Shown one piece after another: positions 12,985 through 63,554 of a stretch of 64,000 nucleotides of DNA. The DNA is taken from assembly GCA_037200965.1 (NCBI GenBank), contig JBBCGK010000001.1, positions 576,001 through 640,000 on the forward strand, written 5' to 3'. Every line of letters starts with the position of its first letter. Position 1 is the first letter of the stretch. The position numbers were made by a program, and so were the translations under genes. The notes beneath the pieces were generated by a model, which was given only the letters and a program-made list of their open reading frames with translations, searched no databases and was not told the origin of the DNA. This DNA is from a bacterium (lineage in GTDB: Bacteria; Patescibacteriota; Minisyncoccia; Phycocordibacterales; Phycocordibacteraceae).

Positions 12985-13788
12985 ATGCGGAAGCCAGCGA
13001 CTCCTCTCACCGAACGCATCATCGATGCGCTATCAAACGGTCCGCGCGGGAAAGTGGAACTGCGCAACCGGGTCGTCGGCAAGGATTTTACCTACCAAGG
13101 CTTCTATAAAGCACTCGCCTCGCTCCGCGCCGCGGAAATAGTTACCCTCCATCGTGACACGGTAAGCCTTTCCGTCGTCTGGCTCGAGCGGGAGCGGGAG
13201 CGTATCGCGAAGAGTGCGGACGCATATCATCTCTCCGGATATCAGAGTTATTTCGGCGGGTTGAAGAATGGCAAGAAACTCTCTTTTAAATTCAAGACGC
13301 TCCGTGAACTCGACCTCTTCTGGACGCAGGCGGTGCTTATCGCGATGCAGGGCGCCGGTCGCGGCGTTCCCATCATTTCCTTCATCCCCCACGACTGGTT
13401 TTACCTTCTTCGGCCCTCGACCGCCGACGTATGGTTCAAACTGCTTGGCAAGGAGAATCCGCATGTGAACATCCTCACGCACGCGACTCGGGAAGAAAAG
13501 AAACTGAGCGAGCATCCTCGCGTTGCCCGCATCGAAAATATGTTCGGCGAGAACCCGCTCCGGCAGAAGGAATCCGCGTATATGAATGTTATCGGCGATC
13601 TGGTGATCGAAGCTGCCCTTGATGAGGCAGTCGTACCCGGGATTCGACGGGCGGTCCGCGGTGAGGCGGTCGACATCGACAAACTCACGGCTCAAAAAGG
13701 TGTTTTCAAGCTTTCTATCCGGCGCGATTCTGCCAAGGCTTCTGTCTTTACGAAGAAAGCCCAAAAGTACTTCAGCATATCTCTGTAA
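12985..13788 (+). CDS. uncharacterised winged-helix regulator-like protein, paralog family X (1 of 3)
   Basis: 267 aa with an N-terminal wHTH-like region. It shows clear similarity to 26571..27374 and 62739..63554 (IPHDWFYL / NPHDFWAY / NPHNWSS, and the C-terminal blocks). Confidence 0.55.
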   Translation: MRKPATPLTERIIDALSNGPRGKVELRNRVVGKDFTYQGFYKALASLRAAEIVTLHRDTVSLSVVWLERERERIAKSADAYHLSGYQSYFGGLKNGKKLSFKFKTLRELDLFWTQAVLIAMQGAGRGVPIISFIPHDWFYLLRPSTADVWFKLLGKENPHVNILTHATREEKKLSEHPRVARIENMFGENPLRQKESAYMNVIGDLVIEAALDEAVVPGIRRAVRGEAVDIDKLTAQKGVFKLSIRRDSAKASVFTKKAQKYFSISL

Positions 13789-13799
13789 ACAACCGGAAG

Positions 13800-14141
13800 T
13801 TGAAAGTATCGACAAATCCGGGAAGTTATTTGCCGATCCTGTTCCGAGGGCTATCTTTCGTGAAGTTACGTGCGATAGAGGAGATGCGCATGATGTGTTC
13901 TGTATGGCCCTACATAATTACTGTCGCGTTCCTTGGAGCAGGGGCTTTTTTGTTCTTGAGTCCGGAATTGAATAGGTACACGGCTCACCGAAGGACGGAA
14001 CTTGGTCTTCCTCCCCTGCCCGCTACTTTCGGTCAAGTCTTCGTACATGGTCTGTGGGCCGCCTTCATGATGTCCCTTATGAGCGGTTTCGTGGCGTATT
14101 TGGTCTATATCACCGTTCACGCTTCCGCGGCCTGCCGCTAG
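13800..14141 (+). CDS. small membrane protein (2 TM), hypothetical
   Basis: Hydrophobic ORF followed by the hairpin 14153..14181. The start is uncertain. Confidence 0.3.
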   Translation: MKVSTNPGSYLPILFRGLSFVKLRAIEEMRMMCSVWPYIITVAFLGAGAFLFLSPELNRYTAHRRTELGLPPLPATFGQVFVHGLWAAFMMSLMSGFVAYLVYITVHASAACR

Positions 14142-14152
14142 GCCAGCCAACC

Positions 14153-14181
14153 CGCCCGGTTTCCGACGAGGAAACCGGGCG
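14153..14181 (+). terminator. GC hairpin (CGCCCGGTTTC / GAAACCGGGCG)
   Basis: Perfect 11-bp stem immediately downstream of 13800..14141. Confidence 0.4.
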
Positions 14182-14276
14182 AACTATTATCAGCACATGC
14201 AACTTTTAGTTGTTTATATCCATACATACCTTCATTTCCTTCGCTTTTATACTTTATTAATCCTAGGCTAGCGGGC

Positions 14277-15092
14277 ATGCGCAAAAGCGATCCGAATCCC
14301 TCTTTCGACTGGTGGGATGAACGCGTCACGAACGAAATATATCTTTCCACGAACCGTCCGGATTGGTGGCGGTTCTGCAAGGCTGTCGCTGGGCTGCTTG
14401 CTGACGGAGAGAATGTGCTTGATGTCGGAACGGGCGACGGCCATACCTTCTGGCAAATCATCTCGGTCGCCTCCGCGCTTCCTTCGTACCGGATAAATAG
14501 CCTGTTCCTGCTCGAACCGAACGAAAGCGGCCTTCGAAGGGCCATGCGCCGCTGCTCGCAATTGCCCGTGGAGCGCATAGTGCCGTACCGGAGTTCGTTT
14601 GCCGATTTCGCGGCCGCATGGGAGCGGAATCCTGAGAGGCTTGATGCGCCGAAGCAGTTCGATAAATTGTTCGCGGGACATGTCAATTACTACCTCGCGG
14701 GCACCCCGAATAACGAAAGTTCGTACCGCGCCGCGCTCGACGCCATGGCCGCTATGGCGGAGACGCTCGTCATCGTTACCGCCCCGCGGGACGGCGACTA
14801 CTACAAAATGGTCCCGAACCCGTTTGGAGAGTATGTGTACAGCGATGTCGTAGCCGAGCACTACCGATCCAGGGGTCTGCGGGTCGAGGTAACGGAGATG
14901 CCCATGCGTTTTTATATTGATCATGTAAATCAGAGCAGGCATGAAGCCGCCGTGCTGTGGCAGTTCTTCAGCAATACCGAGCGGAAGCCGAGTGAAGCTG
15001 AACTTGAAGAGTTTGTAGCGAATGCAAATAAGACCAAGGATAGGAACGGGGATATAAATTTTAAGGACCAAATTCTAGTTATAAATACGTAA
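14277..15092 (+). CDS. class I SAM-dependent methyltransferase
   Basis: SAM-binding motif VLDVGTGDGHTF. Confidence 0.65.
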   Translation: MRKSDPNPSFDWWDERVTNEIYLSTNRPDWWRFCKAVAGLLADGENVLDVGTGDGHTFWQIISVASALPSYRINSLFLLEPNESGLRRAMRRCSQLPVERIVPYRSSFADFAAAWERNPERLDAPKQFDKLFAGHVNYYLAGTPNNESSYRAALDAMAAMAETLVIVTAPRDGDYYKMVPNPFGEYVYSDVVAEHYRSRGLRVEVTEMPMRFYIDHVNQSRHEAAVLWQFFSNTERKPSEAELEEFVANANKTKDRNGDINFKDQILVINT

Positions 15093-15128
15093 GCAGGAGA
15101 CGAGAAGTTTGGTGAACAAATCGCAAAG

Positions 15129-15875
15129 TTAAAGACCGTCCCACAAAACGTCAAAAGCGTCTTTCAGATACTTCACGATCGCCTGATTCTCGATCATCAC
15201 TCCCACGTTGTCCTTGTACGAGAAGAAATACGCGCGGTTGCCCACAAAATAGATTCCCGCTTCCTGCTCGTCGATGTCGAGCCGTTTAACGTTTCGCCCG
15301 AGCGCGGTCTGCTCATCCCTGATGCCGAAGTTGTCCGGCGCGTCCGCGATGAGGAGGTTGGTCGTGACTCCGTACGAGTGCCGACGCTCGATAAATCCGC
15401 GGATGTATTCTTCGAGTCCGCCATCGAAGCGATTGATGCCGAACCCGCGGAAGCTTTTGGCTTTGGTGCCTTTGTGCTGCGTAAGAATATTCTCGAACAG
15501 TCTCTTCAGTCCCTCTTGCCCTTCGTAGTACTGCACGACCGGGAATGCGCCTCCGCGCTTGTTCTCCGCAAGAAGCTTCGGCAGCTCCCGCTCGAGCGTC
15601 TTTTTCTGCTTTTCAAGTTCGTCTTTCCTTTCGGCGACCAGCCGCAAGAGCTCGTTCGGGTCGGCATAGAATTGCCGGACGCCCCGCTTGTCGCTCTGGT
15701 CGATAAATCGCTTCTTGACCAGATCGGCGAGGAGCGAATAGACCGTCTGCCGCGGCAGTCCTGTTTCTTTCGCAACTTTAGCGGCGCCCGCAAGCCCGAT
15801 TCGTAGTAGAGCGAGGTACACACACGTTTCTTTTTCGGACAGGCCGAGTTTTTGTAGGATTTGTTCCACACCCAT
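15129..15875 (-). CDS. TrmB-family transcriptional regulator
   Basis: N-terminal LGLSEKETCVYLALLRIG...ETGLPRQTVYSLLADLVKKRFI. Confidence 0.8.
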   Translation of the reverse strand: MGVEQILQKLGLSEKETCVYLALLRIGLAGAAKVAKETGLPRQTVYSLLADLVKKRFIDQSDKRGVRQFYADPNELLRLVAERKDELEKQKKTLERELPKLLAENKRGGAFPVVQYYEGQEGLKRLFENILTQHKGTKAKSFRGFGINRFDGGLEEYIRGFIERRHSYGVTTNLLIADAPDNFGIRDEQTALGRNVKRLDIDEQEAGIYFVGNRAYFFSYKDNVGVMIENQAIVKYLKDAFDVLWDGL

Positions 15876-16037
15876 ACCTATAGCTTATTGCTGACGAGAA
15901 CTTTCGTCAATTCTTTTAAAAGAAGGCGGACAGTAAGCAATTCTGTACACGACTTGTCATACAAGTCTTGATTATTACTAAAACATCAGCAAAGTAGGGC
16001 GCAGGAACCTGTACGGTGTAAGAAGGAGCAACTGAAG

Positions 16038-16439
16038 ATGAACTACGATGTTTATGGAGACCTGAAAGACAGATTGCGGTTTAGGAGTGGAGTTCGCTTC
16101 GCCCTTAGGATGGTCGGCGGCAGAATTCCTTCAAATTTCACTCTTACCAAACACGGCGCTTCCTGGGAATACATCACGCAGCCCTTAGAGGTCATCGTGC
16201 TTTACGAGGACAAGCCGGAGCCGCGCGTGACTGTCGATTATTCCAGAAACAATCCATTCTTTTCCGCCGTTTTCTGTTGGCCGGAAGAAGGGCGAGAATC
16301 GGACAATGACAGGATGCCATCCAGCGCCCGTCGCCTATGCCGGGTTTTGCTCCGCCGGGCGCGGAGAATGTACTCCCGGCGTATGTTCTGGGCGAAAGTC
16401 CGCCGGGCTCTTTGGCTCGGCAAACCCTTGACGGATTGA
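16038..16439 (+). CDS. hypothetical protein
   Basis: 133-aa ORF with AAGGAG 8 nt upstream of the ATG. It is divergent from the TrmB gene. Confidence 0.4.
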   Translation: MNYDVYGDLKDRLRFRSGVRFALRMVGGRIPSNFTLTKHGASWEYITQPLEVIVLYEDKPEPRVTVDYSRNNPFFSAVFCWPEEGRESDNDRMPSSARRLCRVLLRRARRMYSRRMFWAKVRRALWLGKPLTD

Positions 16440-16874: not shown

Positions 16875-16877
16875 GGC

Positions 16878-21172: not shown

Positions 21173-21865
21173 TTAGGAAGAAGGAAGGCCTCTCGGGACT
21201 GCATCGAAGTGTTCTATGCCCTCATATTCTTTTATATACCTGGCAAGCCGCTTCGTAAGCGGGAGAACAACCATTTCACAGAGTATCACCGCCATCCAGC
21301 TGACAGTCGCTGCGGAAGCCATAAGCGCAAGCGGCAGGATACCCGCGAATGCGATCCCATAGAAGAAGAGCACGTTCACTATCTGTGCTACCGCTACCGA
21401 CGTAAGAGCCCTACCGTAGAAGTACCGAGCCGTGAAATGTACCTTCAAGCGCGACATGACGTATGAGTTGGTGAGTTCTGTGACAAAGTACGCAATAATT
21501 CCCGCAGTGGTTATGCGCGGAACTTGGGAGAAGAGAGTGACGAACGCCGAGTTATTCGCGTAACCTGCCGCAGGCGGGAGGAATACGGCGAGTTCTATGA
21601 AAATGGTATAGACGATAAGACCTCCGAGCCCGACCCACAGAAGTCGTCTCACTCGCCGATAGCCGTATACCTCGGCAAGAATGTCAGCAACGATAAGCGA
21701 CAAGACATAGCTGATTTGCGAACCGACTATCGAGATCCCGAAAAAGTTGACGAACTTGAGATTAAGAACTTCGGTAACAAGCATGAGCGCCATCATAGGC
21801 ATGGCGAGGTACACCAGCGCTTTTGGCTGCCAGGTGTCGCCGACCGCAACCTTTAATTCCTTCAT
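21173..21865 (-). CDS. queuosine-precursor transporter (YhhQ/DUF165 family)
   Basis: Polytopic membrane protein with VADILAEVYGYRRVRR and FVTELTNSYV. Confidence 0.65.
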   Translation of the reverse strand: MKELKVAVGDTWQPKALVYLAMPMMALMLVTEVLNLKFVNFFGISIVGSQISYVLSLIVADILAEVYGYRRVRRLLWVGLGGLIVYTIFIELAVFLPPAAGYANNSAFVTLFSQVPRITTAGIIAYFVTELTNSYVMSRLKVHFTARYFYGRALTSVAVAQIVNVLFFYGIAFAGILPLALMASAATVSWMAVILCEMVVLPLTKRLARYIKEYEGIEHFDAVPRGLPSS

Positions 21866-21981
21866 AACTTCACCTTATTTTCGACAGGGAAAGGCGTCAA
21901 AAAAGTCGACAAAGTGTCTAGAATCAAGAAAATACCCATGGTTTACATATGGTATTGTTTGTCTGACTAGCCGTCAGAATC

Positions 21982-22728
21982 ATGCAAAACCGGGAATCGC
22001 TCAGAAAAATGCTCATACGCTCGGGCCTTAACGATCACGAAGCCGTAGTGTATCTTTCGATGCTTGAACTCGGCCCCTCGACCGTGCTCAAAATCTCCCG
22101 ACAGTCGGGGGTAAAACGAACAACCATTTACGCCGTTATAGAGTCCCTGCGCGCCAAAGGACTGGTAGGGATTGAGGAGCCGGGTCTCAAGCGCATATAC
22201 GTAGCGGAGAATCCGACGCGTCTTGAACGCATACTCGATGAACAGAAGCATGCCCTTCAGTCGTTTTTTCCCGAACTTCAGGCACTCTATTCGCTGCGCG
22301 GCAATAACTCAATAATCCGTTATTACGTCGGTACCGAGGCGATGAGGAGCGTCTACGACGAACTTCTCGCGGAACTCAAAAGCGGTGACGACTATTATGT
22401 CTTTGGGGACCCCGAGCGGTGGGATGCGTTCGATAAAGACTATTTCAAGTCTTTCATTGCTCGCAGGCTGCGGATCAATCTCAAGGCGAAGATCGCGCTC
22501 ATACCCTCAGAAGTTGCGAAAAGTTATAAGCTAAATGAGAAGAATTTTCGGGAAGAGGTTCGCTTGCTTCCGAAAGGCACGCGGCTTGATGCAAATATGC
22601 TGATAACGCCTCGGAAAATCGTAATTCACCCGCTCACCTATCCCATTACGACCATTGTTATTGAAACAGACGCCTTGGTTCGTATGCAGCAGGAGCTGTT
22701 TATGGTGACGTGGGAAGGACTCATATAA
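21982..22728 (+). CDS. TrmB-family transcriptional regulator
   Basis: Sequence SGLNDHEAVVYLSMLELGPSTVLKISRQSGVKRTTIYAVIESLRAKGLV. Confidence 0.8.
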   Translation: MQNRESLRKMLIRSGLNDHEAVVYLSMLELGPSTVLKISRQSGVKRTTIYAVIESLRAKGLVGIEEPGLKRIYVAENPTRLERILDEQKHALQSFFPELQALYSLRGNNSIIRYYVGTEAMRSVYDELLAELKSGDDYYVFGDPERWDAFDKDYFKSFIARRLRINLKAKIALIPSEVAKSYKLNEKNFREEVRLLPKGTRLDANMLITPRKIVIHPLTYPITTIVIETDALVRMQQELFMVTWEGLI

Positions 22729-26570: not shown

Positions 26571-27374
26571 GTGATATTCAGCCGCACGGAAGACCTCGAA
26601 GACCGTATCATCGAACTCCTCCTTGAGGGTCGTTTGAGTATCAAATCGATGCACGCCCGGCTGGTCTTTCCTGAGAAATCGCTCTCGCTTCGCGCTATTT
26701 ATAAAGCGACGGACAAACTCATCGCGGCGGGCGTGCTCATTAAAACCGGGAAGCGGCTGATGGTGGACGAAGAATGGGCGCGAAGGGTAGGGGAGCGACT
26801 TCGTCCTGTCCCGGTCGCGGCGCCCTCAGTCGGGGAGAAATTTTCCCATACCTTTACATCGATCGAACACCTCGATGCCTTCTGGAAGACAGTGGTCCTC
26901 CCTATTGAGGAATCGGTTCCGAACCCCGAAGTCTTCTTCTACAACCCGCACGATTTCTGGGCATATATGCCCGAGCGCAAGGAAAGCGAGGAGGCGTATT
27001 ATCGGCATTTCGCTAAGGTGGGGCGCCACGGCTTTTTTATCGTAGGAGGGGAGTCTGAGGCGGACAAGGAATTTAAGCGGGAATACCAAGGCGAATACCT
27101 TCAAATAGATACAAGAAATATCCTATCCCTTCGCCGAAGTGACCATGTGACCGTTATAGGCTCTCTTATCGTCACGGTACGGCTCCCTAAGGTATCAGCG
27201 ACGCGGATCGATAAGCTCTATGAATCGAACAGGCCGATAAAGGACACACTTCCCGAGCTTCTCCCCATCTGTCGGGCGTTGGGGAAGATTCGCTTCACCC
27301 TTGAAAACGACCCCTTGAAGGCAAAGAAGCTCAGAAAGCTTCTTGCGAGGAACTTCTATTTTCCGAAAACGTAG
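26571..27374 (+). CDS. uncharacterised winged-helix regulator-like protein, paralog family X (2 of 3)
   Basis: 267 aa, homologous to 12985..13788 and 62739..63554. Confidence 0.55.
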   Translation: MIFSRTEDLEDRIIELLLEGRLSIKSMHARLVFPEKSLSLRAIYKATDKLIAAGVLIKTGKRLMVDEEWARRVGERLRPVPVAAPSVGEKFSHTFTSIEHLDAFWKTVVLPIEESVPNPEVFFYNPHDFWAYMPERKESEEAYYRHFAKVGRHGFFIVGGESEADKEFKREYQGEYLQIDTRNILSLRRSDHVTVIGSLIVTVRLPKVSATRIDKLYESNRPIKDTLPELLPICRALGKIRFTLENDPLKAKKLRKLLARNFYFPKT

Positions 27375-33770: not shown

Positions 33771-34532
33771 TCATCCCGCTCCGTTAATCTCCAAGAGCTC
33801 GCTCTCTAGTTCCCTAGCTATATGTGGCCAAGCCTCTTCCACGACTCCCGTTAATAGTCCGACGCGTTCTAAGTCGCGCACCATCGTTTCAACAGGGATA
33901 CTGAAGAAAAGACGACCTGATTTAGCGTAGTAACAAGGATGCGCTTCTGGGTCATGGCGATCTAGGATGTTCCATCCCTTAGTGGGACGATAACAATCTA
34001 AGATTTCCACCGTGCATTGTGGGAAGAGTTCCCCTAGCCATGCACGAAGACTCTCGCATCCCAATTCGGGATTACCGCGGAAGGGCTCATGATCTCCAAA
34101 GTGGGAAGTCCAGAGAGAAACGACCTTAGGCTCGCCGATCTTGTCGGCAACCATGCGAGCCACCTTTTGAAAGATAGCTTTCGTTTCTTCCAACCCGATA
34201 TCATGGGTCGACTTTTCTCCAAAGAGAGAGGCCGAAATCCCCCGAGCGATCAGCTGATCCAACCCACCGAAACGGAACTGTTTGGCGGATAGAAACAGAT
34301 CGCTCTTGCAGGTAAGGTCGGGGAGCCAATAGGAAGCCTCCTTTGCCTCCGTTTCCATATTGTCGCGGTCACGGAAGATACCTTGAAATCCACGAGGATA
34401 GGATTTCTCCCTCACCTCGTACCCAGCTATCTTCAATGTCTCCAGGATGCGTGGGACATACGCCTCGAATACATCGTTCGAGCGGTAAGTAACAAGTACG
34501 GTCTTAGTCATATGGTTGCCCTCCTGAGGCAT
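33771..34532 (-). CDS. hypothetical protein
   Basis: 253-aa ORF. The start may instead be the internal MTKTVLV. Confidence 0.45.
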   Translation of the reverse strand: MPQEGNHMTKTVLVTYRSNDVFEAYVPRILETLKIAGYEVREKSYPRGFQGIFRDRDNMETEAKEASYWLPDLTCKSDLFLSAKQFRFGGLDQLIARGISASLFGEKSTHDIGLEETKAIFQKVARMVADKIGEPKVVSLWTSHFGDHEPFRGNPELGCESLRAWLGELFPQCTVEILDCYRPTKGWNILDRHDPEAHPCYYAKSGRLFFSIPVETMVRDLERVGLLTGVVEEAWPHIARELESELLEINGAG

Positions 34533-34660
34533 GCGCCGAAGCGCGATAAAGCGAACTTGATTTCTGAGATTAGTGTAGCGCAGTATTGTATAAAGTCAAG
34601 TAGTCTTGACGACCAAATATATGACCTATATGCTATGTAAATAAAGGCTATTTAATACCT

Positions 34661-35434
34661 ATGTCAATAATTCTTGACCAAACGGATAGCAAGGAGTTGA
34701 TTGAAGGGCTTGAGACGCTGGGCCTGAACGCTAAGGAGGCACAGGTCTATCTGGCCCTTTTGCCCCGTCGGGACGTCGGTTCCTCGAAGATTGTCCTTGC
34801 GACAGGCCTTCATAAGCAGTTCGTATACAATGCAATCGAAAAACTGGAGCAATTAGGCCTCATAAAGCATGTCATACAGAACGGCCGGAAGAAGTTCAGT
34901 GCCAATCCGCCGAGTCGTCTCCTCTCTATCGTGGAAGAGAAGCGCCTTGCCGCTCAAAACATGGCGAAGCGCCTCCAGGAACGCTTTATCGGCGCGCATG
35001 AGCAGGATTTCGAAGTGTTCCAAGGAGATTCGGCCGTACTTGCCCACCATTACGATATGTTCGAACGCATCGAACAGGACCAGGAAGCGCTCGTGATATC
35101 GGGACCCACCGAGACATTCCTTAAGATTATCGGCCCGGACGAGAAGGATGTATTCGAGGAAACGCGCGTAGCGAAAGGCCTTCGCATCCGCTATCTGGGT
35201 ATGGAATCGATGCGCGAACGGCTCATCGAGACGAAAAAATGGCGCAAGCTCTTCGATTACCGCATCCTGCCGGGCGGACAATCGACCGGCCAGCTCGATA
35301 TCGATATCTGGCCGAACAACGTCACGTACAACCTTTTCGGTGATCCTCTGCTCTCCATCACGATTACGAACAAAGCGATGACCGATGGATACCGGGAGTT
35401 CTTCGAGTCGCTGTGGAAGCTCTCGAAACCATAA
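34661..35434 (+). CDS. TrmB-family transcriptional regulator
   Basis: Sequence LGLNAKEAQVYLALLPRRDVGSSKIVLATGLHKQFVYNAIEKLEQLGLI. A TTGACG-17-TATGCT promoter-like element lies upstream. Confidence 0.75.
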   Translation: MSIILDQTDSKELIEGLETLGLNAKEAQVYLALLPRRDVGSSKIVLATGLHKQFVYNAIEKLEQLGLIKHVIQNGRKKFSANPPSRLLSIVEEKRLAAQNMAKRLQERFIGAHEQDFEVFQGDSAVLAHHYDMFERIEQDQEALVISGPTETFLKIIGPDEKDVFEETRVAKGLRIRYLGMESMRERLIETKKWRKLFDYRILPGGQSTGQLDIDIWPNNVTYNLFGDPLLSITITNKAMTDGYREFFESLWKLSKP

Positions 35435-48188: not shown

Positions 48189-48216
48189 TTGACGAAAGAG
48201 CTACTATGGCTATAAT
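48189..48216 (+). promoter_or_regulatory. sigma70-like promoter TTGACG-16 nt-TATAAT
   Basis: Near-consensus boxes. The -10 box ends 7 nt before the antitoxin ATG at 48224, suggesting a leaderless or short-leader transcript. Confidence 0.45.
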
Positions 48217-48223
48217 GGCTCGT

Positions 48224-52439: not shown

Positions 52440-53702
52440 TCAGGCCGCAACCGAAAGCCTTTCGGCGACGCGCCTAGGCACGTCGCTGTAGAAGCGCTTC
52501 GGCAGGGATATGCCATCTTTCACGCACCCGTTGTTGAACTTGTTGATCTGGTAGTTCACGCTGCCTTGCCAGATATCAACCAGCGATGCATCCCGCACAT
52601 TCGGATGGACGACGAAGTCGGGTGTGTCGTTTCCGGGGCATCTCCAGACGGCACCATCGTAGTGCAGATAGAGTCCGTGCGTGAGCTGATTGCACGGAGC
52701 GATGCCGATGTAGGATGCGGCGCCTTCATGGTACAGCTGTTCAAGGGTCATGACGCCGCGGGTGATGGCCCAAGTGTAGACGTCGACGGCGAGGTCGAGA
52801 TAGTCGTTCTCGAACTTCTCATCCGCAGCCGACCTCACCAGCTTATGGCCCTTGCCGCTCACCATGGTGGGCGGCATCACAACGGGGATATTTCGTTCGG
52901 TTCCCCACTGATAGAGCTCGAACGCGCCATGTACGTTTTCGCCCGTAACCGGAGCGCAGGCGATCTCGAGGCGCTGATGCAGGAGGTCGCCGTTCATCCC
53001 GAGTCCGCAGAGGCGCTCGATGGCGAGGTTCCGCGCCGCGTGATAGTCGAACCTGATATCGCGGAACTCGCGCAAGTTCTGCGGAATGAAGCGATTTTCA
53101 AGCTCGGGATCGAACGACCGTGCGCCGACGAGGAACGTGGTGTTTGGATATGCCGCAAGACGCCGGGTCAGGTCCTCCGATCCGATCCCGTGATAGTGCC
53201 GCGACAGATGGTCATTGCCCATGATTGCCGCCTTGGTGAAGATACCGGCGATGATGTTCCTTTTCGCCAGCTCATCGAGGATGAAGAAGAGCTTTGAATT
53301 CGCCAGCAGTTCTCCGGGACCGAGAAACTTCATCGACTCGAGCCCGAGCAGTTTCGCCTGGTCGACAACCCGCATGACTTCAGGAAGAGTCATGATCGGA
53401 TTGACCAATTCGGCGTTGTTGAAGCAGCCGGGACAGGCGTGCGGACACGGATAGTTCTTCACGAACGTGTCCTTCGCCTCTTTGGAACCGGGCGCATGCG
53501 CGTTGACCTTGGCCGCAAAACCGGCCTCGGGGATATTGAGATCGAGGGTAAGCATTTTCTTTACGCGCTTGCCTTCAATCTCAACGCTTTCCCCGATACG
53601 GCTTTCAGGGAAGCTCCATTTATACACCATCAATGCGTAGCCGTTCGGGATCTGGCCCTTGGGCGGCAGAATGGGCACAACGGCAGGGAATATGTTTTTC
53701 AT
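52440..53702 (-). CDS. radical SAM protein with Cys-rich C-terminal (SPASM/twitch-like) region
   Basis: Motifs CPHACPGCF (CxxxCxxC + aromatic) and GPGELL. C-terminal cysteines (APC, WRC, GCV). Confidence 0.7.
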   Translation of the reverse strand: MKNIFPAVVPILPPKGQIPNGYALMVYKWSFPESRIGESVEIEGKRVKKMLTLDLNIPEAGFAAKVNAHAPGSKEAKDTFVKNYPCPHACPGCFNNAELVNPIMTLPEVMRVVDQAKLLGLESMKFLGPGELLANSKLFFILDELAKRNIIAGIFTKAAIMGNDHLSRHYHGIGSEDLTRRLAAYPNTTFLVGARSFDPELENRFIPQNLREFRDIRFDYHAARNLAIERLCGLGMNGDLLHQRLEIACAPVTGENVHGAFELYQWGTERNIPVVMPPTMVSGKGHKLVRSAADEKFENDYLDLAVDVYTWAITRGVMTLEQLYHEGAASYIGIAPCNQLTHGLYLHYDGAVWRCPGNDTPDFVVHPNVRDASLVDIWQGSVNYQINKFNNGCVKDGISLPKRFYSDVPRRVAERLSVAA

Positions 53703-53874
53703 GACGGTAGCCTTTCGGGTTGGGTTGCCTTTCTTTCAAGAAGCTTCGCACTTCTTCCGCAAGTATATTTCTACAAGTCAAGGATGTCAATAGGTCGTAT
53801 GCTAAAATAGGGCTTACTTAAAGCATGTGCACAGTAGTGTGGAACGCGTTTGACACGAATATACCCTATAGAGT

Positions 53875-54678
53875 ATGATTAAACTCATGAAAAAAAGACA
53901 AGAGGACGCGTCAGAAACGCTTCTGTCTTTAGGGCTTTCAAGAAGGGAAGTAGGAGTGTATATCGCGCTTTTAGAGCTTGGACACGGGACGGTCACCCAG
54001 ATATCAAGAAAGGCGGGTATAAATAGGACGACTGGTTACGATATCCTTGATGCGTTAGCGCACAAGAACCTCGCGCGGCTCTCCGGTAAGGAGCCAAAGG
54101 AAGAATACGTGGCTGAATCTCCGGAAAAGCTCGTTACGCTGCTTGATGAGAAGCTGGCAGAGACACAAAAGCAGCTGATCCTTGCGAAGGAATTTCTCCC
54201 GCAACTCAAAGCGATGCATACGGTTCAGGATCGTCCGCAAGTACGGTTCTATGAGGGTGTCGAAGGACTCAAAGAAGTATATGAAGACACTTTGACTTCC
54301 CCGGAACCGATTCGTGCGTACGCCTGTATCGACGACATGCACAAGGCGCTCCCCAACTACTTTCCCGAGTACTATAAACGTCGCGCGCGCAAAGGCATCT
54401 CGATACGCGGCATAGTCCCCGAGACAAAAACGGCGATGGCGCAGGCTGCGTTTAATGCGGAGGAAAAACGCGATATAGCGTTCGTGCCTGCCGATAAGTA
54501 TTACTTCTCTCCGGAAATAAATATTTACGCTAATAAAGTTATGGTGGCATCGTGGCGCGAGAAGCTCGGCATCATCATAGAAAGCGCCGAGATCGCTGAT
54601 GCCATGAAAAAGATATATGAGCTGGCGTGGGCAGAAGCCAAGCGGCTTGATGCGGCGAACTCACCGGTGTCGACATAG
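53875..54678 (+). CDS. TrmB-family transcriptional regulator
   Basis: Sequence LGLSRREVGVYIALLELGHGTVTQISRKAGINRTTGYDILDALAHKNL. Confidence 0.75.
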   Translation: MIKLMKKRQEDASETLLSLGLSRREVGVYIALLELGHGTVTQISRKAGINRTTGYDILDALAHKNLARLSGKEPKEEYVAESPEKLVTLLDEKLAETQKQLILAKEFLPQLKAMHTVQDRPQVRFYEGVEGLKEVYEDTLTSPEPIRAYACIDDMHKALPNYFPEYYKRRARKGISIRGIVPETKTAMAQAAFNAEEKRDIAFVPADKYYFSPEINIYANKVMVASWREKLGIIIESAEIADAMKKIYELAWAEAKRLDAANSPVST

Positions 54679-56111: not shown

Positions 56112-56113
56112 GA

Positions 56114-57793: not shown

Positions 57794-57848
57794 AGTAGCG
57801 TATCTTGCATGGGAAACGCTTCCGGGGACTGAGGCGCTGGAATCCTAG
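57794..57848 (+). repeat. degenerate duplicate of the pgk 3' terminus (would encode ..AYLAWETLPGTEALES*), direct repeat of 55805-55856
   Basis: CGTATCTTGC...ACGCTTCCGGGGA[T/C]TGAGGCGCTGG is shared with the pgk end (25 bp with 1 mismatch inside a ~45-bp ~85% match). Confidence 0.6.
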
Positions 57849-58615
57849 AGAGCCTTCCACATAAAGGCATGCATATTTTTAAACAGATTAGCGATATCCT
57901 TGTTTTCGATAACAACCGCAGATAAGTCCCGGAGACTTATAAGCGCGACCTTTTCGTTGAAAACAAGAACGTCGACATTGGACGTAAACCATTCGGGGAG
58001 CCGTTTGTCTGATTTATTTTCATATCCGTTCTTCTCGCGCAGAGCTCGCAGTTTTTTGTAGGTTTTAGCGCTTGCGATAAACAAATCCTTCGCCTTAAAC
58101 GCGTGATCGCTATTTGTCTTGTCGAAATCGCCGTATTCTGCTTCGGTGAAGTTTTCGAAGAAAATATCGGCGGGGAAGATGGAATACGTATCGCCGAGCG
58201 TTTTAAACAGTTCCTCGTAAATATTCTTGATCGCACGCTTTCCTTCGAAGAAGCCGACCTTGGGCTTGTTCGTCGCGCGTTCATATATCTTGCTCATGAC
58301 GGCGGCAGTCGAGTCGAATGCTAGAAGCTCCTTCCTAAGATTTGCGGCGACGGTCTTCGGATCGACTGCCGCGTACAGCGTGCGCTTGCCGATAGGTATC
58401 CGAGTAATGAAACCCTTTTTGAGCAGAAGATCCAGATATTCGTAGCAGGTAGCGCGCCGCACGTCCGCTTGGCGGACTATATCCGCGACTCCCATGCGGC
58501 TTTTCCCGAGAAGCGACACGTAAATCACCGCAGCCTTATCCGGCAAACCGATTCGTTCCAACTCCTTTATGAACGGGATATGTTCCATAAGTTCATATAA
58601 GCTGACTTGGAACAA
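57845..58615 (-). CDS. TrmB-family transcriptional regulator
   Basis: Sequence IGLPDKAAVIYVSLLGKSRMGVADIVRQADVRRATCYEYLDLLLKKGFI. Confidence 0.7.
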   Translation of the reverse strand: MFQVSLYELMEHIPFIKELERIGLPDKAAVIYVSLLGKSRMGVADIVRQADVRRATCYEYLDLLLKKGFITRIPIGKRTLYAAVDPKTVAANLRKELLAFDSTAAVMSKIYERATNKPKVGFFEGKRAIKNIYEELFKTLGDTYSIFPADIFFENFTEAEYGDFDKTNSDHAFKAKDLFIASAKTYKKLRALREKNGYENKSDKRLPEWFTSNVDVLVFNEKVALISLRDLSAVVIENKDIANLFKNMHAFMWKAL

Positions 58616-58720
58616 ATGTCAACGAAAGCGACATATTTTACCAGTACCCTCTAAACCACCCTTCACTTTATAAGTCTATTAATAAATATAAGCGTTATTC
58701 CAGACACAAGTACCCATTTA

Positions 58721-59245
58721 TTGAATACTGGGCGGGCTGGTATGGCGCTAAAATCAAAGACAACTCTGCAAACCAAACGCGGCATTTTCGAAGTCGGATA
58801 TTACGTTGTAGACGGGAATCCTTATGTTTCTTTCCGCTACGGGGATGTTTCCCAGGGCAGACCAATAGTGCGATTACAGTCGGCTTGCCTTTTCGGGGAG
58901 GCTTTCGGTTCGCTTGAGTGCGAGTGTGGCGCGCAACTTGCCAAGGCTCTGGACGCCATTGTTAGCCGCGGGGCGGGTCTTGTGCTCTATGCCTATGCGG
59001 AAGGTCGTGGCGCAGGGCTTGAGAAAAAGATAGAAGCTATGGAGATTCAAAGGACGACCGGATGCAATACAGTCGAAGCTTTTGACTCGCTTGGTCTTGA
59101 GAAGTCCGACTACCGGGATTATCAGGCTGAGGTGAACATCCTCACCGAGTTAGGCACAAGCCTCCATATCTGCTTGTTTTCGAAAAATCCAGCTCGATAT
59201 CAAGCGCTCAAAGACGCAGGCTTCGATGTAGATCCATATGAGTAG
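58721..59245 (+). CDS. GTP cyclohydrolase II (RibA)-family protein
   Basis: Motifs RLQSACLFGEAFGSLECECGAQLAKAL (zinc Cys triad) and EGRGAGLEKKIEA...NTVEAFDSLGLEKSDYRDY. The start may be the internal MALKSK. Confidence 0.75.
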   Translation: MNTGRAGMALKSKTTLQTKRGIFEVGYYVVDGNPYVSFRYGDVSQGRPIVRLQSACLFGEAFGSLECECGAQLAKALDAIVSRGAGLVLYAYAEGRGAGLEKKIEAMEIQRTTGCNTVEAFDSLGLEKSDYRDYQAEVNILTELGTSLHICLFSKNPARYQALKDAGFDVDPYE

Positions 59246-60140
59246 CTCGTCTGAGCTTATGTATCGTTGGCTTCGCGTATCTCCTACCGGAGACGGATAT
59301 ATCGAGCCCGATTATTACGATCAGCTTCTCAGAAAGTATATCTTTGATGGTAAAGAGGATACCGAGTACTTCCGAGAACATCTTGCAAAAGCACCTTCTC
59401 ATTCAGCATTTCTTGAGCTTGGCCCCGGGACCGGACGAGCGACAAATATACTATTCGCATCGGTTCCGGACATACATTCGCTTACGCTCGTTGATTTAAG
59501 CAGCCGTATGCTTAGTAGCTGCAAACAAGTTTTCACCCGCAAAGAATGCATTTCTTATGTCGTTTCCGATTCCATAGATTTCCTGTTGTCAGTGCAGTCG
59601 TCGTACGACTATATCTATAGCCTGTGGAGTCTTTCTCACTCCATACACAAGAATCTTGAAGACTTGGGAAAAGAAGACGGAAAAGCAAAAGTACGAGAGG
59701 CGCTCTTAAAAATGGTACGGGAGAATCTCAACCGGAACGGCTCTTTATTCCTGATACATTTCGATTCTTCCTCTCCCGAGCAGGAAATATCTATTCGGCA
59801 AAGGCGGCGCGATTCCCGTGACCGGAAATTGTTTGCAGATGTCTCCAAACAAAGTCCCTCTAAGGAAATACTCGACGAGTGCCTTGAAGAATTAAGGCGC
59901 TCGGGTGAGATCTGTTTTGAATGTGAGAGGCATGTAGGTACAGCGCTCGAATTCAGTTCGCTCGACGAAGCGCTCGAGTATTATCTTAATTTCCATATGG
60001 CTTCGTATTTCAATACCTCAAGTTCGATCGACGACATCTTGAAGGAGCTTTCTCAGGATTTACTGGAACACCAAGGGAGTGATGGAAAGATACGGATCGT
60101 TCCCGGTTGCTTCATCTACAAAGCAAGTAAGCCTGGTTAA
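59238..60140 (+). CDS. class I SAM-dependent methyltransferase
   Basis: Motif LELGPGTGRAT. Overlaps the upstream gene by 8 nt (ATGAGTAG). Confidence 0.6.
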   Translation: MSSSSELMYRWLRVSPTGDGYIEPDYYDQLLRKYIFDGKEDTEYFREHLAKAPSHSAFLELGPGTGRATNILFASVPDIHSLTLVDLSSRMLSSCKQVFTRKECISYVVSDSIDFLLSVQSSYDYIYSLWSLSHSIHKNLEDLGKEDGKAKVREALLKMVRENLNRNGSLFLIHFDSSSPEQEISIRQRRRDSRDRKLFADVSKQSPSKEILDECLEELRRSGEICFECERHVGTALEFSSLDEALEYYLNFHMASYFNTSSSIDDILKELSQDLLEHQGSDGKIRIVPGCFIYKASKPG

Positions 60141-60176: not shown

Positions 60177-60998
60177 CTAAGATACTTGGCTATTCATCAG
60201 ATCGCGCAAAAGCTCGTTCGCATCTATAAGCTGCGAATGCTCCTGCATAAATTCAAAGGCGGAAAGAATCATTTTTTGTATCTCCGAGTTCTTGACTTCG
60301 ACAATCAATCCTTCGCTTAAGGAGAAGAGATATAAGGAATCCTTAAATATCCAGCACTGGCCGCCATGCCTGAAGTACTTTGGATCAATAACATTGACTC
60401 TCGCGGTGCGTCCTTCGAAATCTTTCACCCATTGTATTCCTAGAGAACGCGCTTGTTCCTCAAGCCACCCGATTGGCAAGACAGCTTCGGTAATCGTACG
60501 GCCCTTCTTTATATCGCGGTTTATTCGGTTTGTTTCGGAAACGGTGAACAGGGTATTCCAACTCTTGGTCGCGCGGTCACCTTGGAAGCCCCAGAAGAAC
60601 CGTTGGTTCTTGTTCGCTTCAAAGAGCTCAAGCATGACCTTCCTAATTGCTTCTTTTCCCCGATAGATACATACCGTTGAGTCAGCGCGACCGTGAACCT
60701 GTTGGTTTCCTTCGGGTATTTGCAGCAAGAAACGCTTGAAATCGTATAGTGCCTGATCAATAGTATCTCCGCTATGCAATTGCCACCGCTTGCGTCCTTT
60801 GGCGATGCGCGAAACGGCCAGCCCTCGTTTATGCAGATTCGCCAAAATCGCATAAATGGCAGAGCGGGAGATTCCCGTCTGGCGAGTCAGCTTTAAGGGC
60901 GTATCCGCACCGTCGCGAAGCGCCAAGAGAATCTTCCTTTCCTTGATTGAGAGGCCGAGTATTCGCAGATCATCGTGAAGTGCCATACGGCAAAACAT
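60177..60998 (-). CDS. TrmB-like transcriptional regulator
   Basis: Sequence LGLSIKERKILLALRDGADTPLKLTRQTGISRSAIYAILANLHKRGL. Confidence 0.65.
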   Translation of the reverse strand: MFCRMALHDDLRILGLSIKERKILLALRDGADTPLKLTRQTGISRSAIYAILANLHKRGLAVSRIAKGRKRWQLHSGDTIDQALYDFKRFLLQIPEGNQQVHGRADSTVCIYRGKEAIRKVMLELFEANKNQRFFWGFQGDRATKSWNTLFTVSETNRINRDIKKGRTITEAVLPIGWLEEQARSLGIQWVKDFEGRTARVNVIDPKYFRHGGQCWIFKDSLYLFSLSEGLIVEVKNSEIQKMILSAFEFMQEHSQLIDANELLRDLMNSQVS

Positions 60999-61169
60999 AG
61001 CAAAAGGTATATAACCTGTCCACTTTCTTAGACAGATATATAAAGCATAAAAACCCTTATATACAGCTTATTTCCAGTATTACTCAACTTAGAGAATACC
61101 TTACTATACTGTCAATGTCTTTAGGATCATTCTTATAGAGGGAACTAGAACTTTATATGGGAGACCGCT

Positions 61170-62318
61170 ATGGCTTGCGAAACGAACGAAGTGCCGCAGG
61201 AAGTGACCGCGATCGATCGTTGGATTGACCACGTATTGCACGGAGAAAAGGATACTGCGATTCCAACGTTACTTGGTCGGGAAGTTCCACCTCTTTTGTC
61301 GTGGATAGTGCGGGGCGGATGCGCGATACAGTGCCGCCACTGCATCTTTCCTCACGAAGGCCCGAAAACCTTCGGCGTGCAAACGGGCGAGGAAGCGCTT
61401 CTCGGCATTCTCCGCCAGTTGTCCGGTTCGCGCCACCTCATTCACGAAGGAAGGCAGCTACTTCCGTGGCAGGTACCGATCTTGGCGGCTGCAGGCCGCG
61501 CAGGACACGGAGTATCGCTTATCAATAACGGACAATATGCAGCGCCGAATATGCTGGCGCTATGCGAGCGAGAGGGGCTCGCAATCGACGCGCTTGACGT
61601 GTCGGTCGACGGTACGAAAGATATCCACAATGGACAGCGCGCGAGCAATAATGCCTGGGACATCGCAATGAAAGGGATTGTGCATGCCAAGCACATACTC
61701 AAGACCGATGGCAAACTTACTTCTCTCTTCACGCTCACCACGCTCAATCACGCGCACTTAGCCGAAACGGGAGAGATGCTCACGCAGGTGGTCGATGAAT
61801 GGCACGTGACGACGATGTCGTTACGGCCGGGGATCGAGCACCTGCGGGCAGGCGATCGCGAACTCGCCTTAGCGCTTGAACAATTGCTCGGCGGCAACTT
61901 CGCGAAACCAGTGTTCCTGCGTACCTATTCTCTCGACGATTTTGTCGCTCTGCTTGGAATTCTCGGAAAAGAAACGGCAAATAGGGTTCTCAGGAACGCG
62001 CTGGTGACTTATAACGCCATCGTACTCGATATCGGAATACCCCTGTACTTCTATCCTAAGTCCCTGCAGGTGAATGAAACGTTAGTGATCGACGCGGATG
62101 GGTGGTGGCGTCTGCCGTTTTGCATCCATCACTCGCTTGCGGAACTGCGGGCGGGAGAGGATGAGATGGGCAAGGATATTTCGCATTTCAATGTCGTCCC
62201 GGTACTGCCGTGCGTGGATGTCCCAACTCTCCATGCCAAGGCCGCATCGAGATGGTGGGTCAGTATAGGCCGGGATTGTTTATCGCTTGAGCGCCAGGCG
62301 CTCGAAGCGTTTCTCTAA
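61170..62318 (+). CDS. radical-SAM-like enzyme (CxxxCxxC: GGCAIQCRHCIF) with C-terminal Cys residues
   Basis: N-terminal Cys triad in typical rSAM spacing. Three further Cys near the C-terminus. No other family assignment is possible by eye. Confidence 0.5.
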   Translation: MACETNEVPQEVTAIDRWIDHVLHGEKDTAIPTLLGREVPPLLSWIVRGGCAIQCRHCIFPHEGPKTFGVQTGEEALLGILRQLSGSRHLIHEGRQLLPWQVPILAAAGRAGHGVSLINNGQYAAPNMLALCEREGLAIDALDVSVDGTKDIHNGQRASNNAWDIAMKGIVHAKHILKTDGKLTSLFTLTTLNHAHLAETGEMLTQVVDEWHVTTMSLRPGIEHLRAGDRELALALEQLLGGNFAKPVFLRTYSLDDFVALLGILGKETANRVLRNALVTYNAIVLDIGIPLYFYPKSLQVNETLVIDADGWWRLPFCIHHSLAELRAGEDEMGKDISHFNVVPVLPCVDVPTLHAKAASRWWVSIGRDCLSLERQALEAFL

Positions 62319-62341
62319 CAACCGGAAAGGAGGTGAAAACT

Positions 62342-62461
62342 ATGTCCGGAGCCAATACCGGTTCCGCTGGCGTGGATGCGAAAGCACGTCCGCCAGTGCA
62401 ATCGTCAGGGGCGAATACCGGTTCGACGGGCGTAACGACGCCGCGTTTGCCGCGTAAGTAG
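62342..62461 (+). CDS. 39-aa repeat peptide MSGANTGSAGVDAKARPPVQSSGANTGSTGVTTPRLPRK, candidate RiPP precursor/substrate
   Basis: Strong SD AAGGAGGTGA 8 nt upstream. Begins 24 nt after the rSAM-like stop. Two copies of SGANTGS[AT]GV. A nested hairpin (62472-62515) lies downstream. Confidence 0.4.
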   Translation: MSGANTGSAGVDAKARPPVQSSGANTGSTGVTTPRLPRK

Positions 62462-62738
62462 CCTCGGTGACTACAGAGAGCCCGTTCACGCTTTTGATTC
62501 GCGTGGGCGGGCTCTTCTCTTTTATACACTAAATGTGATTCTCGATGTTTCTTTAGAATCGATCGGTCGCCGTTCGCGTAGCCGAGACGGGTCTAACAAT
62601 CGAACGATAGCGGCGCAATGCTCAAGTCTCTTGCGGCTGAATGTTTTCAGCGATTGAAGCATTGAGAGACTAAACAGATTACTCTATTCATAAAGACGCA
62701 TATACCACCTCGTAAAGTCACCCAATACCGCTTTGGTA

Positions 62739-63554
62739 TCAACGACGAATATGAAAATCCTTGGATATACGGCGTTTCCACGCGGCGGCTTTCCCAGGGT
62801 CTTTAGCAATTTTTACCTTTGATGTAACTTCGTGATCTAACTTCTTCAACTTATCCTTGGCGCGCTCAAGGTCGGTTTCCGTTTTAAAGAGAAGTTCGAC
62901 TGCCTTTCGAGCTTTGGGATTAAAACGCACTTCAATCACCCATTCGTGGATTACGGCAATAAACACTTCTTGACGAACTTTCGGCGAGTACGATACCTCA
63001 ACGTTAGAGAATGCGAGCTCCCGGGTTGCGAGCTTGTCGAGCGCCGAAGAGGAGCCGATGAGAAGATAGGCTCTTCTTCCTTTTGCTCCAAGGAGCATAT
63101 CGTGGCTTTTGTCGCTATCGCCACGCAGTACACTCGACCAATTATGCGGATTAAAGAGGTAAAGGTGCTGGCGGTGAGGAACACCCTTTTCAATTACTGA
63201 AAACAGATGGGACCATATCCGATCCATAGCAGTAAGACCATGAATGGTAAGCGTGATCTCTTCTCCGCGTTCAAGCTGACTGAAGTCGCCGAGGATGGAA
63301 CTGTTTTTATATTCGACAAGCTGGCGAAGCTGCTTTAACCAATGTTCGCTTACCGATACGGCAGAACGGTAGACGATAACCTTCTCTTGCGCTCTCAGCT
63401 TTCTAAGCGCCCTATAAAAACCCTGCTTCGTGCAGGCGTGCTTCCTCCTCAGGCCTTTAAGGAGCTCAGTAGTCGTAACCGCTCCTTTTTGAAGTACAAA
63501 AGTAAGGACTGAATCTTCAAGGCGGCTGCCTAACAGTTGCATAGCAGTAAACAA
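62739..63554 (-). CDS. uncharacterised winged-helix regulator-like protein, paralog family X (3 of 3)
   Basis: 271 aa, homologous to 12985..13788 and 26571..27374 (FNPHNWSS, IGSSSALDK). Confidence 0.55.
   Translation of the reverse strand: MFTAMQLLGSRLEDSVLTFVLQKGAVTTTELLKGLRRKHACTKQGFYRALRKLRAQEKVIVYRSAVSVSEHWLKQLRQLVEYKNSSILGDFSQLERGEEITLTIHGLTAMDRIWSHLFSVIEKGVPHRQHLYLFNPHNWSSVLRGDSDKSHDMLLGAKGRRAYLLIGSSSALDKLATRELAFSNVEVSYSPKVRQEVFIAVIHEWVIEVRFNPKARKAVELLFKTETDLERAKDKLKKLDHEVTSKVKIAKDPGKAAAWKRRISKDFHIRR

Follow-up and report, generated by a model that had tools for sequence, protein, structure and literature searches.

What might nine regulators with an N-terminal winged helix-turn-helix (wHTH) control when they are encoded within a single 64-kb stretch of a bacterial genome? 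This stretch, here called the window (64,000 nucleotides, positions 576,001 to 640,000 of contig JBBCGK010000001.1, assembly GCA_037200965.1), comes from a member of the Patescibacteria, or candidate phyla radiation (CPR). These bacteria represent a very large part of bacterial diversity, with genomes of about 1 Mb, and hardly any of them has been cultured. To our knowledge, next to nothing is known of their gene regulation. A preliminary description of the window had proposed that the regulators, mostly encoded head-to-head with a different neighbour, are repeated modules of a local regulator and an acquired gene, and possibly hotspots of gene gain. We consider it likely that they are one-component TrmB-like regulators, most of which act locally and use palindromic candidate operators to control themselves and their divergent partner genes. 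All coordinates below are window positions.

All nine open reading frames (ORFs) are present where the preliminary description had placed them, and they amount to about 12% of the genes in the window. Six match the Pfam profile of TrmB (PF01978) above its gathering score of 25.6 bits (57.6, 50.4, 49.0, 47.9, 38.9 and 25.9 bits), as expected from their earlier designation as TrmB-like genes. We call them family A and number them in window order: A1 (15129..15875, minus strand; 50.4 bits), A2 (21982..22728, plus strand), A3 (34661..35434, plus strand; 38.9 bits), A4 (53875..54678, plus strand; 49 bits), A5 (57845..58588, minus strand; 47.9 bits) and A6 (60177..60998, minus strand; 25.9 bits). 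The ORF of A5 extends to 58615, with a recorded start at 58588. The proteins share 20-32% pairwise identity over their full length, and A1 shows full-length similarity to the other members. A6 is the most divergent and passes the Pfam threshold only narrowly; it matches the family A hidden Markov model (HMM) over its full length. In assembly GCA_037975565.1, A6 is annotated with just 152 residues and without the wHTH. This is an annotation artefact rather than a pseudogene, because the ORF of 273 codons is intact and the gene is called as a protein of 269 residues, with a weak TrmB match, in two other assemblies of the same organism. Exact protein matches locate the window sequence on contig JBBCBH010010897.1 (960,259 bp) of the MAG (metagenome-assembled genome) GCA_037975565.1, where 95,301 has to be added to a window position to give the record position, and near-identical contigs were found in GCA_015655515.1 and two Logan assemblies. 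The closest relatives of the window proteins are encoded in MAGs of Adlerbacteria, Nomurabacteria and other Patescibacteria.

The three other regulators form family B: B1 (12985..13788, plus strand), B2 (26571..27374, plus strand) and B3 (62739..63542, minus strand; ORF to 63554, recorded start at 63542). The existence of this second family of proteins of about 267 residues, recognised earlier, is upheld by the mutual similarity of its members (E 1e-9 to 1e-17). None of the three has any match in Pfam or NCBIfam, PF01978 included (0/3). The motifs first ascribed to the family need some correction. The PH[DN][WF] block is real, but the preceding residue is I or N instead of F or N, and B2 has F in place of W; the IG..xAxDK block occurs in B2 and B3 and is absent from B1 and its orthologues. 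Searches with HMMs of both families revealed no additional member in the 64-kb window, including positions 1-12,984, or in the 9.5 kb to its right.

Do the two families belong together? When compared by hhalign as deep profiles (49 family A and 39 family B sequences), they aligned with 85% probability (E 6e-6) over 206 columns spanning both domains, a result that supersedes a first run with shallow profiles (9% probability). AlphaFold models of A2 and B1, with mean confidence (pLDDT) of 84.5 and 81.3, follow a common plan: a winged helix, one long helix and then a domain rich in beta-alpha-beta elements. The A2 model matched the structures of NucT (score 13.5), Nuc (12.4), TrmB (12.3), the TrmB sugar-binding domain (12.2) and TrmBL2 (11.9). 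The B1 model matched Nuc (10.1), TrmBL2 (9.5), TrmB (8.5) and the TrmB sugar-binding domain (8.4). The nine proteins are therefore members of one TrmB-like superfamily, with a fold common to A and B and remote homology between them, and the refuting outcome named in the preliminary description, unrelated folds, did not come about. The membership of family B rests on fold and profile-profile homology, because PF01978 misses all three window members and all of the 39 diverse members (0/39), for which we found no meaningful Pfam match.

The similarity to TrmB covers the DNA-binding part and only a portion of the effector part. The Pyrococcus furiosus TrmB structure (3qph) matched the family A profile only in the wHTH and the start of the next helix (E 3e-7). 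A tyrosine of the recognition helix (Y50 in A2 numbering) is nearly invariant in the 49 family A sequences and aligns with Y50 of TrmB in the hmmsearch alignment; in family B, Y41 is invariant and is aligned by hhalign with the same TrmB-type tyrosine. Y50 of P. furiosus TrmB was reported to be important for DNA recognition (PMC4158304). The PLD-like alpha/beta subdomain that forms the N-terminal part of the TrmB effector domain is present. The C-terminal sugar-binding subdomain is absent: none of the nine proteins matches PF11495 and the models end after the PLD-like domain. With 248-273 residues, versus 338 in TrmB, the proteins resemble the short TrmBL2/TrmBL3-type members. They score far below the cut-offs of the NCBIfam equivalogs for TrmB, TrmBL1 and halophile TrmB.

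Family B is a divergent clade of this superfamily, lacking a Pfam model and carrying an invariant histidine in the PLD-like domain. It is also large. An exhaustive profile search retrieved at least 1,305 representative clusters (50% identity) at E<=1e-3, of which 251 at <=1e-30, and nearly all are full-length (265-285 residues). A member with a named source comes from Magasanikbacteria. An alignment of 11 sequences shows P135 and H136 to be invariant, and H136 is so across the 39 diverse members too. This histidine stands in a P-H-[DN]-W context, has no accompanying lysine and, judging from the secondary structure, would occupy a different position in the fold from the histidine of the catalytic HKD motif.

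The preliminary description was also right that the regulators are mostly encoded head-to-head. Each of the six family A genes diverges from the gene upstream of it, across an intergenic region of 116-172 bp. B2 and B3 are divergent from small hypothetical genes (hyp119 and hyp140, respectively), which brings the total to eight out of nine; B1 is co-directional with its upstream neighbour. Within the window this is only modestly significant (p about 0.015), because the genes switch strand often and the base rate of divergent neighbours is 0.44-0.50. We therefore turn to 45 related loci from representative genomes, nearly all Patescibacteria, which were anchored on A2 homologues. In these loci, 66 of the 74 family A genes are divergent, versus 216 of the 538 other genes (40%; p=1.7e-16). 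For several contigs with A2-like genes (L018, L020, L021, L038, L042, L043 and L047), the MAG is labelled as Gammaproteobacteria, Oligoflexia, Bdellovibrionota, Pseudomonadota or Victivallaceae; either these contigs were assigned to the wrong bin, or the family also occurs outside Patescibacteria.

Each family A gene of the window faces a different partner. A2 is divergent from a Vut_1/YhhQ-type queuosine precursor transporter (21173..21865, minus strand), which matches PF02592 with 108.9 bits and TIGR00697 with 78.8 bits, above its cut-off; the earlier label of this gene, queT, was mistaken, since it is not QueT. A4 faces rSAM1 (52440..53702, minus strand), a radical SAM/SPASM-like gene with the motif CPHACPGC at residue 86 and sub-threshold matches to Radical_SAM and SPASM. 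The partner of A6 is rSAM2 (61170..62318, plus strand), a radical SAM-like gene with CAIQCRHC at residue 51, a Radical_SAM match of 23.1 bits that falls below the cut-off, and weak NCBIfam matches of the NirJ/AhbC type. The radical SAM labels first given to these two genes thus have the cysteine motifs in their favour, but all the domain matches are sub-threshold. We also considered rSAM1 and rSAM2 as paralogues and rejected the idea, as they have no detectable similarity beyond the CxxxCxxC motif. A5 faces an operon (58742..60140, plus strand) of a GTP cyclohydrolase II-like gene and an S-adenosylmethionine (SAM) methyltransferase (Methyltransf_25, 36 bits). The former, described earlier as ribA-like, indeed carries a GTP cyclohydrolase II domain (PF00925, 115 bits), and it matches the RibA subfamily of NCBIfam below the cut-off. 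The partners of A1 (hyp133, 16038..16439, plus strand) and A3 (hyp246, 33771..34511, minus strand) have no family match.

In the related loci, the commonest partner of family A is a LivJ-type solute-binding protein (Peripla_BP_6, 15 cases). Among the other partners are Vut_1, an NMT1-type binding protein, YcaO, a radical SAM enzyme, an octopine dehydrogenase-like enzyme, a thymidylate synthase-like protein and a SLOG/LOG-like protein. Apart from the two hypotheticals of the window, the partners are genes for uptake, salvage or small-molecule enzymes, and the set varies from one lineage to another. Regulators of the A2 type share a candidate operator and yet face different cargo in different lineages. 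Some pairs are stable: Vut_1-A2 is kept in loci L012-L016, is still adjacent in L017 and recurs as a unit in other genera, and rSAM1-A4 is kept in L015 (76% and 71% identity), where it directly adjoins Vut_1-A2. The gene for phosphoglycerate kinase (PGK) lies 36 bp downstream of A4 on the same strand, with triosephosphate isomerase (TIM) nearby. A role of A4 as a glycolysis regulator is not supported, because the PGK adjacency is conserved neither in L015 nor in L017. The view that these are local regulators with a neighbouring cargo gene is well supported by the divergent arrangement, by the recurrent units and by a palindrome specific to the family.

This palindrome emerged from the search for a shared operator motif that the preliminary description had suggested. 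K-mer enrichment (6-7-mers) in the six family A intergenic regions yielded only TTGAC as a shared element. We first took it for plain -35 boxes, until phylogenetic footprinting showed that it is part of a spaced palindrome. An alignment of the Vut_1-A2 intergenic region from six genomes contains two conserved blocks amid diverged sequence. Of the 38 A2-like genes (36-76% protein identity), 28 have TGTC-N8-11-GACA in the 200 nt before their start, versus a background of 0.023 per 200 nt. Perfect TGTC-N9/10-GACA sites lie within 120 nt upstream of 33 of the 76 family A genes and of 13 of the 552 other genes (p=1e-23), and with one mismatch allowed these numbers become 52/76 and 52/552 (p=1e-28). 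An unbiased palindrome scan, which covered the 256 four-base half-sites with spacers of 3-13 nt (2,816 tests), ranked TGTC-N9-GACA first by far (31/76 versus 1/486, p=6e-29).

The position of the sites is also constrained. They cluster at -19 to -34 and -84 to -104 from the start codon of the regulator, and paired sites are 64-66 bp apart in 10 of the 17 pairs (65 bp is the modal distance), with TGTCATATnTGTCGACA as the distal consensus. The arms are conserved and the spacer is variable. The presence of the site follows the recognition helix: it was found for 31 of the 55 regulators with K-R-T-T (RTT) and for none of the seven with Q at position 47, a relation that is confounded by phylogeny. 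A1 and A3 both carry Q at this position.

In the window, A2 is preceded by two operator-like sites, each with one mismatch to TGTC-N9-GACA. The distal one, CGTCAAAAAAGTCGACA (21895..21911, plus strand), is a conserved block 65 bp from the proximal one, TGTCTGACTAGCCGTCA (21960..21976, plus strand), which lies 5-22 bp upstream of the A2 start. The site of A4, TGTGGAACGCGTTTGACA (53838..53855, plus strand), has an N10 spacer and one mismatch and is placed 20-37 bp upstream of the gene. A5 is preceded, at 29-45 bp, by the sole perfect TGTC-N9-GACA in the window (TGTCGCTTTCGTTGACA, 58617..58633, minus strand), and A6, at 19-36 bp, by a perfect TGTC-N10-GACA (TGTCTAAGAAAGTGGACA, 61017..61034, minus strand). 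Upstream of A1, at 17-34 bp, is a palindrome of another type (TGACGAAAgtTCTCGTCA, 15892..15909, minus strand), a candidate A1-specific operator. A further palindrome, GTCAAGtagtCTTGAC (34595..34610, plus strand), is a candidate A3-specific operator upstream of that gene.

These elements suggest how a module might work. The N-terminal TrmB-type winged helix, with its conserved tyrosine in the recognition helix, would read the DNA, and the long helix is the probable dimer interface. A family A dimer would bind a palindrome of 17-18 bp in the shared region of 116-172 bp: TGTC-N9/10-GACA for A2, A4, A5 and A6, and other palindromes for A1 and A3. The A2 subfamily would use its two sites 65 bp apart. 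Binding would control the promoter of the regulator and the partner gene, most likely by repressing both. The C-terminal domain has a PLD/Nuc fold from which the catalytic HKD residues have disappeared; its probable role is to bind a small effector molecule, which would relieve repression in the manner of TetR/TetA. Queuosine precursors are candidate effectors for A2.

Several observations weigh against this scheme. The gene calls in the related loci are crude (greedy longest ORFs). A1 and A3 lack TGTC-N9-GACA, and both A2 sites depart from it. A2-like genes weigh most heavily in the motif statistics, since A2 homologues served as anchors for the loci, and only 9 of the 36 other family A genes have the site. 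The GACA half-sites resemble -35 hexamers (TCGACA, TGGACA) and are chosen as such by a promoter scan, so that operator and promoter signals are entangled; the operators probably overlap promoters. For family B, the operators are only candidates and no partner is conserved. Finally, the PLD-like domain may serve only oligomerisation, as in TrmBL2, for which we know of no effector.

The main alternative keeps the same proteins and sites and changes the sign of regulation: the proteins would be ligand-dependent activators, with a LysR-like logic, or dual regulators. Archaeal members of the TrmB family include repressors, activators and proteins with both activities (PMC4158304), and the distal site overlaps a -35-like hexamer, an arrangement compatible with class II activation. 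Yet, the proximal site lies 5-35 bp before the start codon of the regulator, downstream of plausible promoters, which is typical of a repressor roadblock. For the partner gene, none of these observations discriminates between the modes. On balance we regard activation or dual regulation as unlikely, and as the rival that best withstands the evidence.

It is quite improbable that TGTC-N9-GACA merely represents back-to-back -35-like hexamers of divergent promoters, with proteins that regulate other targets or none in particular. The half-sites do match TTGACA at 4-6 of its six positions, the six intergenic regions of family A all show enrichment of TTGAC, and promoter scans choose the half-sites as -35 boxes. 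However, other upstream regions also hold promoters, and the paired palindrome with its fixed spacer is almost absent from them, which makes a pure promoter signal unlikely. The proximal site stops about 5 bp short of the start codon, and the N-terminal residues encoded from there are conserved and modelled within the wHTH, so the site cannot be the -35 box of that gene. Conservation of the arms with a variable spacer, and the covariation of the site with the recognition helix, also speak for an operator.

The scheme of local regulators fares better still against two other views. The proteins might be nucleoid-associated, architectural proteins like TrmBL2, with little sequence specificity, and abundant because of a chromatin role where nucleoid proteins are scarce. 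Their length and domain plan equal those of TrmBL2, which lacks the sugar-binding subdomain (PMC4158304). Nine paralogues at 20-32% identity with different recognition helices are nevertheless unlike a general architectural protein, they have specific palindromes at their own loci, the window encodes an HU protein, and the match to the NCBIfam model of TrmBL2 (NF041141) reaches only 12.7-14 bits for a cut-off of 530; we hold this view to be very improbable. Equally improbable is a PLD-like domain acting as an enzyme (nuclease or phosphodiesterase) linked to mobile elements or defence, mainly in family B: Nuc, NucT and Zucchini, all nucleases, are among the best structural matches, H136 is invariant, and transposase and recombinase genes are nearby, but the HxK(x)4D(x)6G(S/T)xN catalytic motif is missing from the nine proteins, the 49 family A sequences have no conserved histidine or lysine in the C-terminal domain, and the alignments suggest that the HxK hairpin has variable residues in family A and Y-x-N in family B. 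The PLD-like domain is most likely a non-catalytic domain for sensing or dimerisation.

Family B most likely works like family A, a reading supported only by palindromes or boxes near promoters in three or four sequences. The palindrome TAGTAAACgggttGTTTACTG (63545-63565) lies directly upstream of the B3 start. Directly upstream of the B1 start is the box TTAAACT-N3-AGTTG (12969..12983, plus strand), a candidate operator or -10 element, conserved in three orthologous and otherwise diverged upstream regions, a weak signal given that it comes from three sequences. Between hyp118 and B1, a GC-rich hairpin followed by a T-run (12916..12948, plus strand) reads as terminator-like, so B1 probably has its own promoter. 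We looked in vain for a conserved small partner of family B: hyp118, hyp119 and hyp140 are not detectably related to each other, and the gene of 118 residues that precedes the B1 orthologue in L056 shows no homology either.

Other neighbours of family B deserve mention. Downstream of B1, hyp271 (14277-15092, plus strand) has a motif I of SAM methyltransferases (VLDVGTGDG) and no Pfam or NCBIfam match. An orthologue with 60% identity (L061:6920-7735) follows the B1 orthologue in L061, so B1 and hyp271 may be a conserved pair. The same locus contains two family B genes head-to-head, at 4745-5608 (minus strand) and 6001-6807 (plus strand), i.e., the B1 orthologue and a second member (E 4e-47), which indicates that family B genes cluster elsewhere too. 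Downstream of B2, at 52 bp, hyp233 (27427-28128, plus strand) has a weak N-terminal helix-turn-helix match, and its stretch IAGLMLYWGEGDK recalls LAGLIDADG when read by eye.

Is the region a hotspot of acquired genes? This part of the earlier proposal is only partly supported. On the one hand, relatives have variable slots at these positions, cargo differs per lineage, and the GC content at third codon positions (GC3) of regulators and partners is 0.60-0.61 versus 0.72 for housekeeping genes (p=1.4e-4), which fits accessory status and also lower expression. L056 and L061 share the backbone of the window and have other genes in the slots of A1/hyp133 and Vut_1/A2; neither locus (20.8 kb and 12.8 kb, respectively) encodes a family A gene. 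The A5 orthologues (63-65% identity; L012, L013, Adlerbacteria) are at a different genomic place, without the GTP cyclohydrolase II gene. On the other hand, the paralogues are old, given their 20-32% identity, and for A2-A5 other genera encode orthologues or co-orthologues with 48-77% identity (e.g., A3 has co-orthologues at 48-50% in L011). The density of family A is similar elsewhere in Patescibacteria: the window has five further members among 71 genes, close to the 36 found in 644 kb around A2-like genes in other genomes. Among the best 120 of 8,000 scored candidates of a profile search, A2 is the only one from the contig that holds the window.

The backbone is conserved as well. Among the core genes of the window are those for KsgA, UvrD, ribosomal protein S15, a Xer-type recombinase, ExoIII, the CCA-adding enzyme, RarA, HU, RNase Y, ClpP, inorganic pyrophosphatase (PPase), NusA, PilB, TIM and PGK. 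They are interspersed with mobile-element, toxin-antitoxin and hypothetical genes. The order NYN-S15-Xer-[Vut_1-A2]-...-ExoIII-CCA is kept in Adlerbacteria loci, and KsgA-UvrD-LysM/M23-...-B1 in three further genomes. Hence, the modules are old and mobile within the lineage, and they occupy variable slots of a conserved backbone rather than a recent island.

Some mobile elements were found around the modules. Two fully identical direct copies (962 bp) of an IS3-family insertion sequence, at 11491-12452 and at L058:1605-2566 (window-equivalent 70977-71938), encode a transposase of 300 residues (HTH_Tnp_1 and rve_3). They are about 59 kb apart and bracket all nine regulators. A composite transposon is unlikely, given the core genes between the copies (S15, NusA, RNase Y, PGK, TIM), whose order is conserved in other genera. 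Between B2 and A3, the segment 28811-33800 may be an integrated element or its remnant: it encodes a large serine recombinase (29479-30792, minus strand), a DUF6886-like gene and several hypothetical genes of low GC3, and has an unusually long non-coding gap at about 33018-33499. A Y1_Tnp gene (35685-36116, plus strand), i.e., a tyrosine transposase of the IS200/IS605 type or associated with REP elements, follows A3 in the same orientation, at a distance of 250 bp. Toxin-antitoxin-like pairs occur amid the core genes, at 48215-48758 (plus strand; a Phd/YefM antitoxin and its partner) and 55851-56383 (minus strand; a YafQ toxin and its partner). The UvrD/PcrA helicase (7146-10139, minus strand) probably carries an intein insertion of about 340 residues, since it has 997 residues and a weak Intein_splicing match, versus 622-659 residues for the orthologues at the same locus in three genomes. 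Finally, an overlapping gene pair (40345-41594, plus strand) encodes a HATPase_c-domain protein of 320 residues and a DUF4325 protein of 96 residues.

These results might have a wider bearing, which we put forward tentatively and with more doubt than conviction. One expanded TrmB-like superfamily (A and B) could provide the main small-molecule switches of Patescibacteria, in portable cassettes of a regulator and a fixed promoter/operator unit with a pair of TGTC-N9-GACA sites at a distance of 65 bp, which would be shared by lineages of class level and would have repeatedly captured genes for uptake or salvage. The cargo may include YhhQ, LivJ-type and NMT1-type binding proteins, radical SAM, YcaO, thymidylate synthase-like and LOG-like proteins. 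If this is true, the operator could be used to read out regulons, the PLD-like domains could reveal which metabolites are sensed by host-dependent bacteria, and family B, with its invariant histidine, would be a new sensor clade. More generally, the pairing and the searchable predicted operator offer a concrete route from metagenomes alone to predictions of local regulons and of the metabolites that may be sensed, and they supply protein-DNA pairs that can be tested in vitro. The Pfam-less family B can now be given a fold and a probable function. Our full-text literature searches found no paper mentioning TrmB together with any CPR term, and searches for COG1378 returned nothing relevant. The conserved predicted operator, the cassette with two sites, the fold assignment of family B and the regulator-cargo statistics are new.

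How do these regulators compare with known systems? The closest are TrmB and TrmBL1, the archaeal sugar-sensing regulators (3QPH, 2F5T; PF01978 and PF11495). They share the TrmB-type wHTH with the tyrosine of the recognition helix, the long helix after the wing, the PLD-like alpha/beta domain, which corresponds to the N-terminal part of their effector domain, and an association with genes for uptake, namely those of solute-binding proteins and transporters. Their operators are also palindromes with half-sites of 4-6 nt, but these are TACT-N3-AGTA, TATCAC-N5-GTGATA and TACT-N7-8-GAGTA, whereas the one predicted here is TGTC-N9/10-GACA. The proteins described here are shorter (about 250-270 residues versus about 340), lack the sugar-binding subdomain and PF11495, and in the case of family B are missed by PF01978. 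Their partners in the window are not sugar ABC operons, and their hosts are bacteria (CPR), which implies regulation on sigma-70-type promoters. TrmBL2, the chromatin protein of Thermococcales (5BPD), differs in being a single highly conserved gene whose product binds DNA broadly, in coding and intergenic regions alike; the paralogues described here are many and diverged, have a predicted palindrome and a divergent partner each, and score far from the NCBIfam model. In contrast to Nuc, NucT, Zucchini and BfiI of the PLD/Nuc superfamily, the domain lacks the HKD motif and is fused to a wHTH. In their working, the modules are most like the pairs of TetR/TetA type and the divergent pairs of LysR type: transcription diverges from a short shared region with two palindromic operators, and a ligand-responsive one-component regulator would control itself and its partner. 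The likeness is one of working only, since the fold, a TrmB-type wHTH with a PLD-like domain, is unrelated and the mechanism proposed here is a deduction. This is therefore not a new kind of system, as its logic is that of the familiar divergent one-component regulator. It is a known type of divergent switch that is unusually abundant, and unstudied, in CPR/Patescibacteria.

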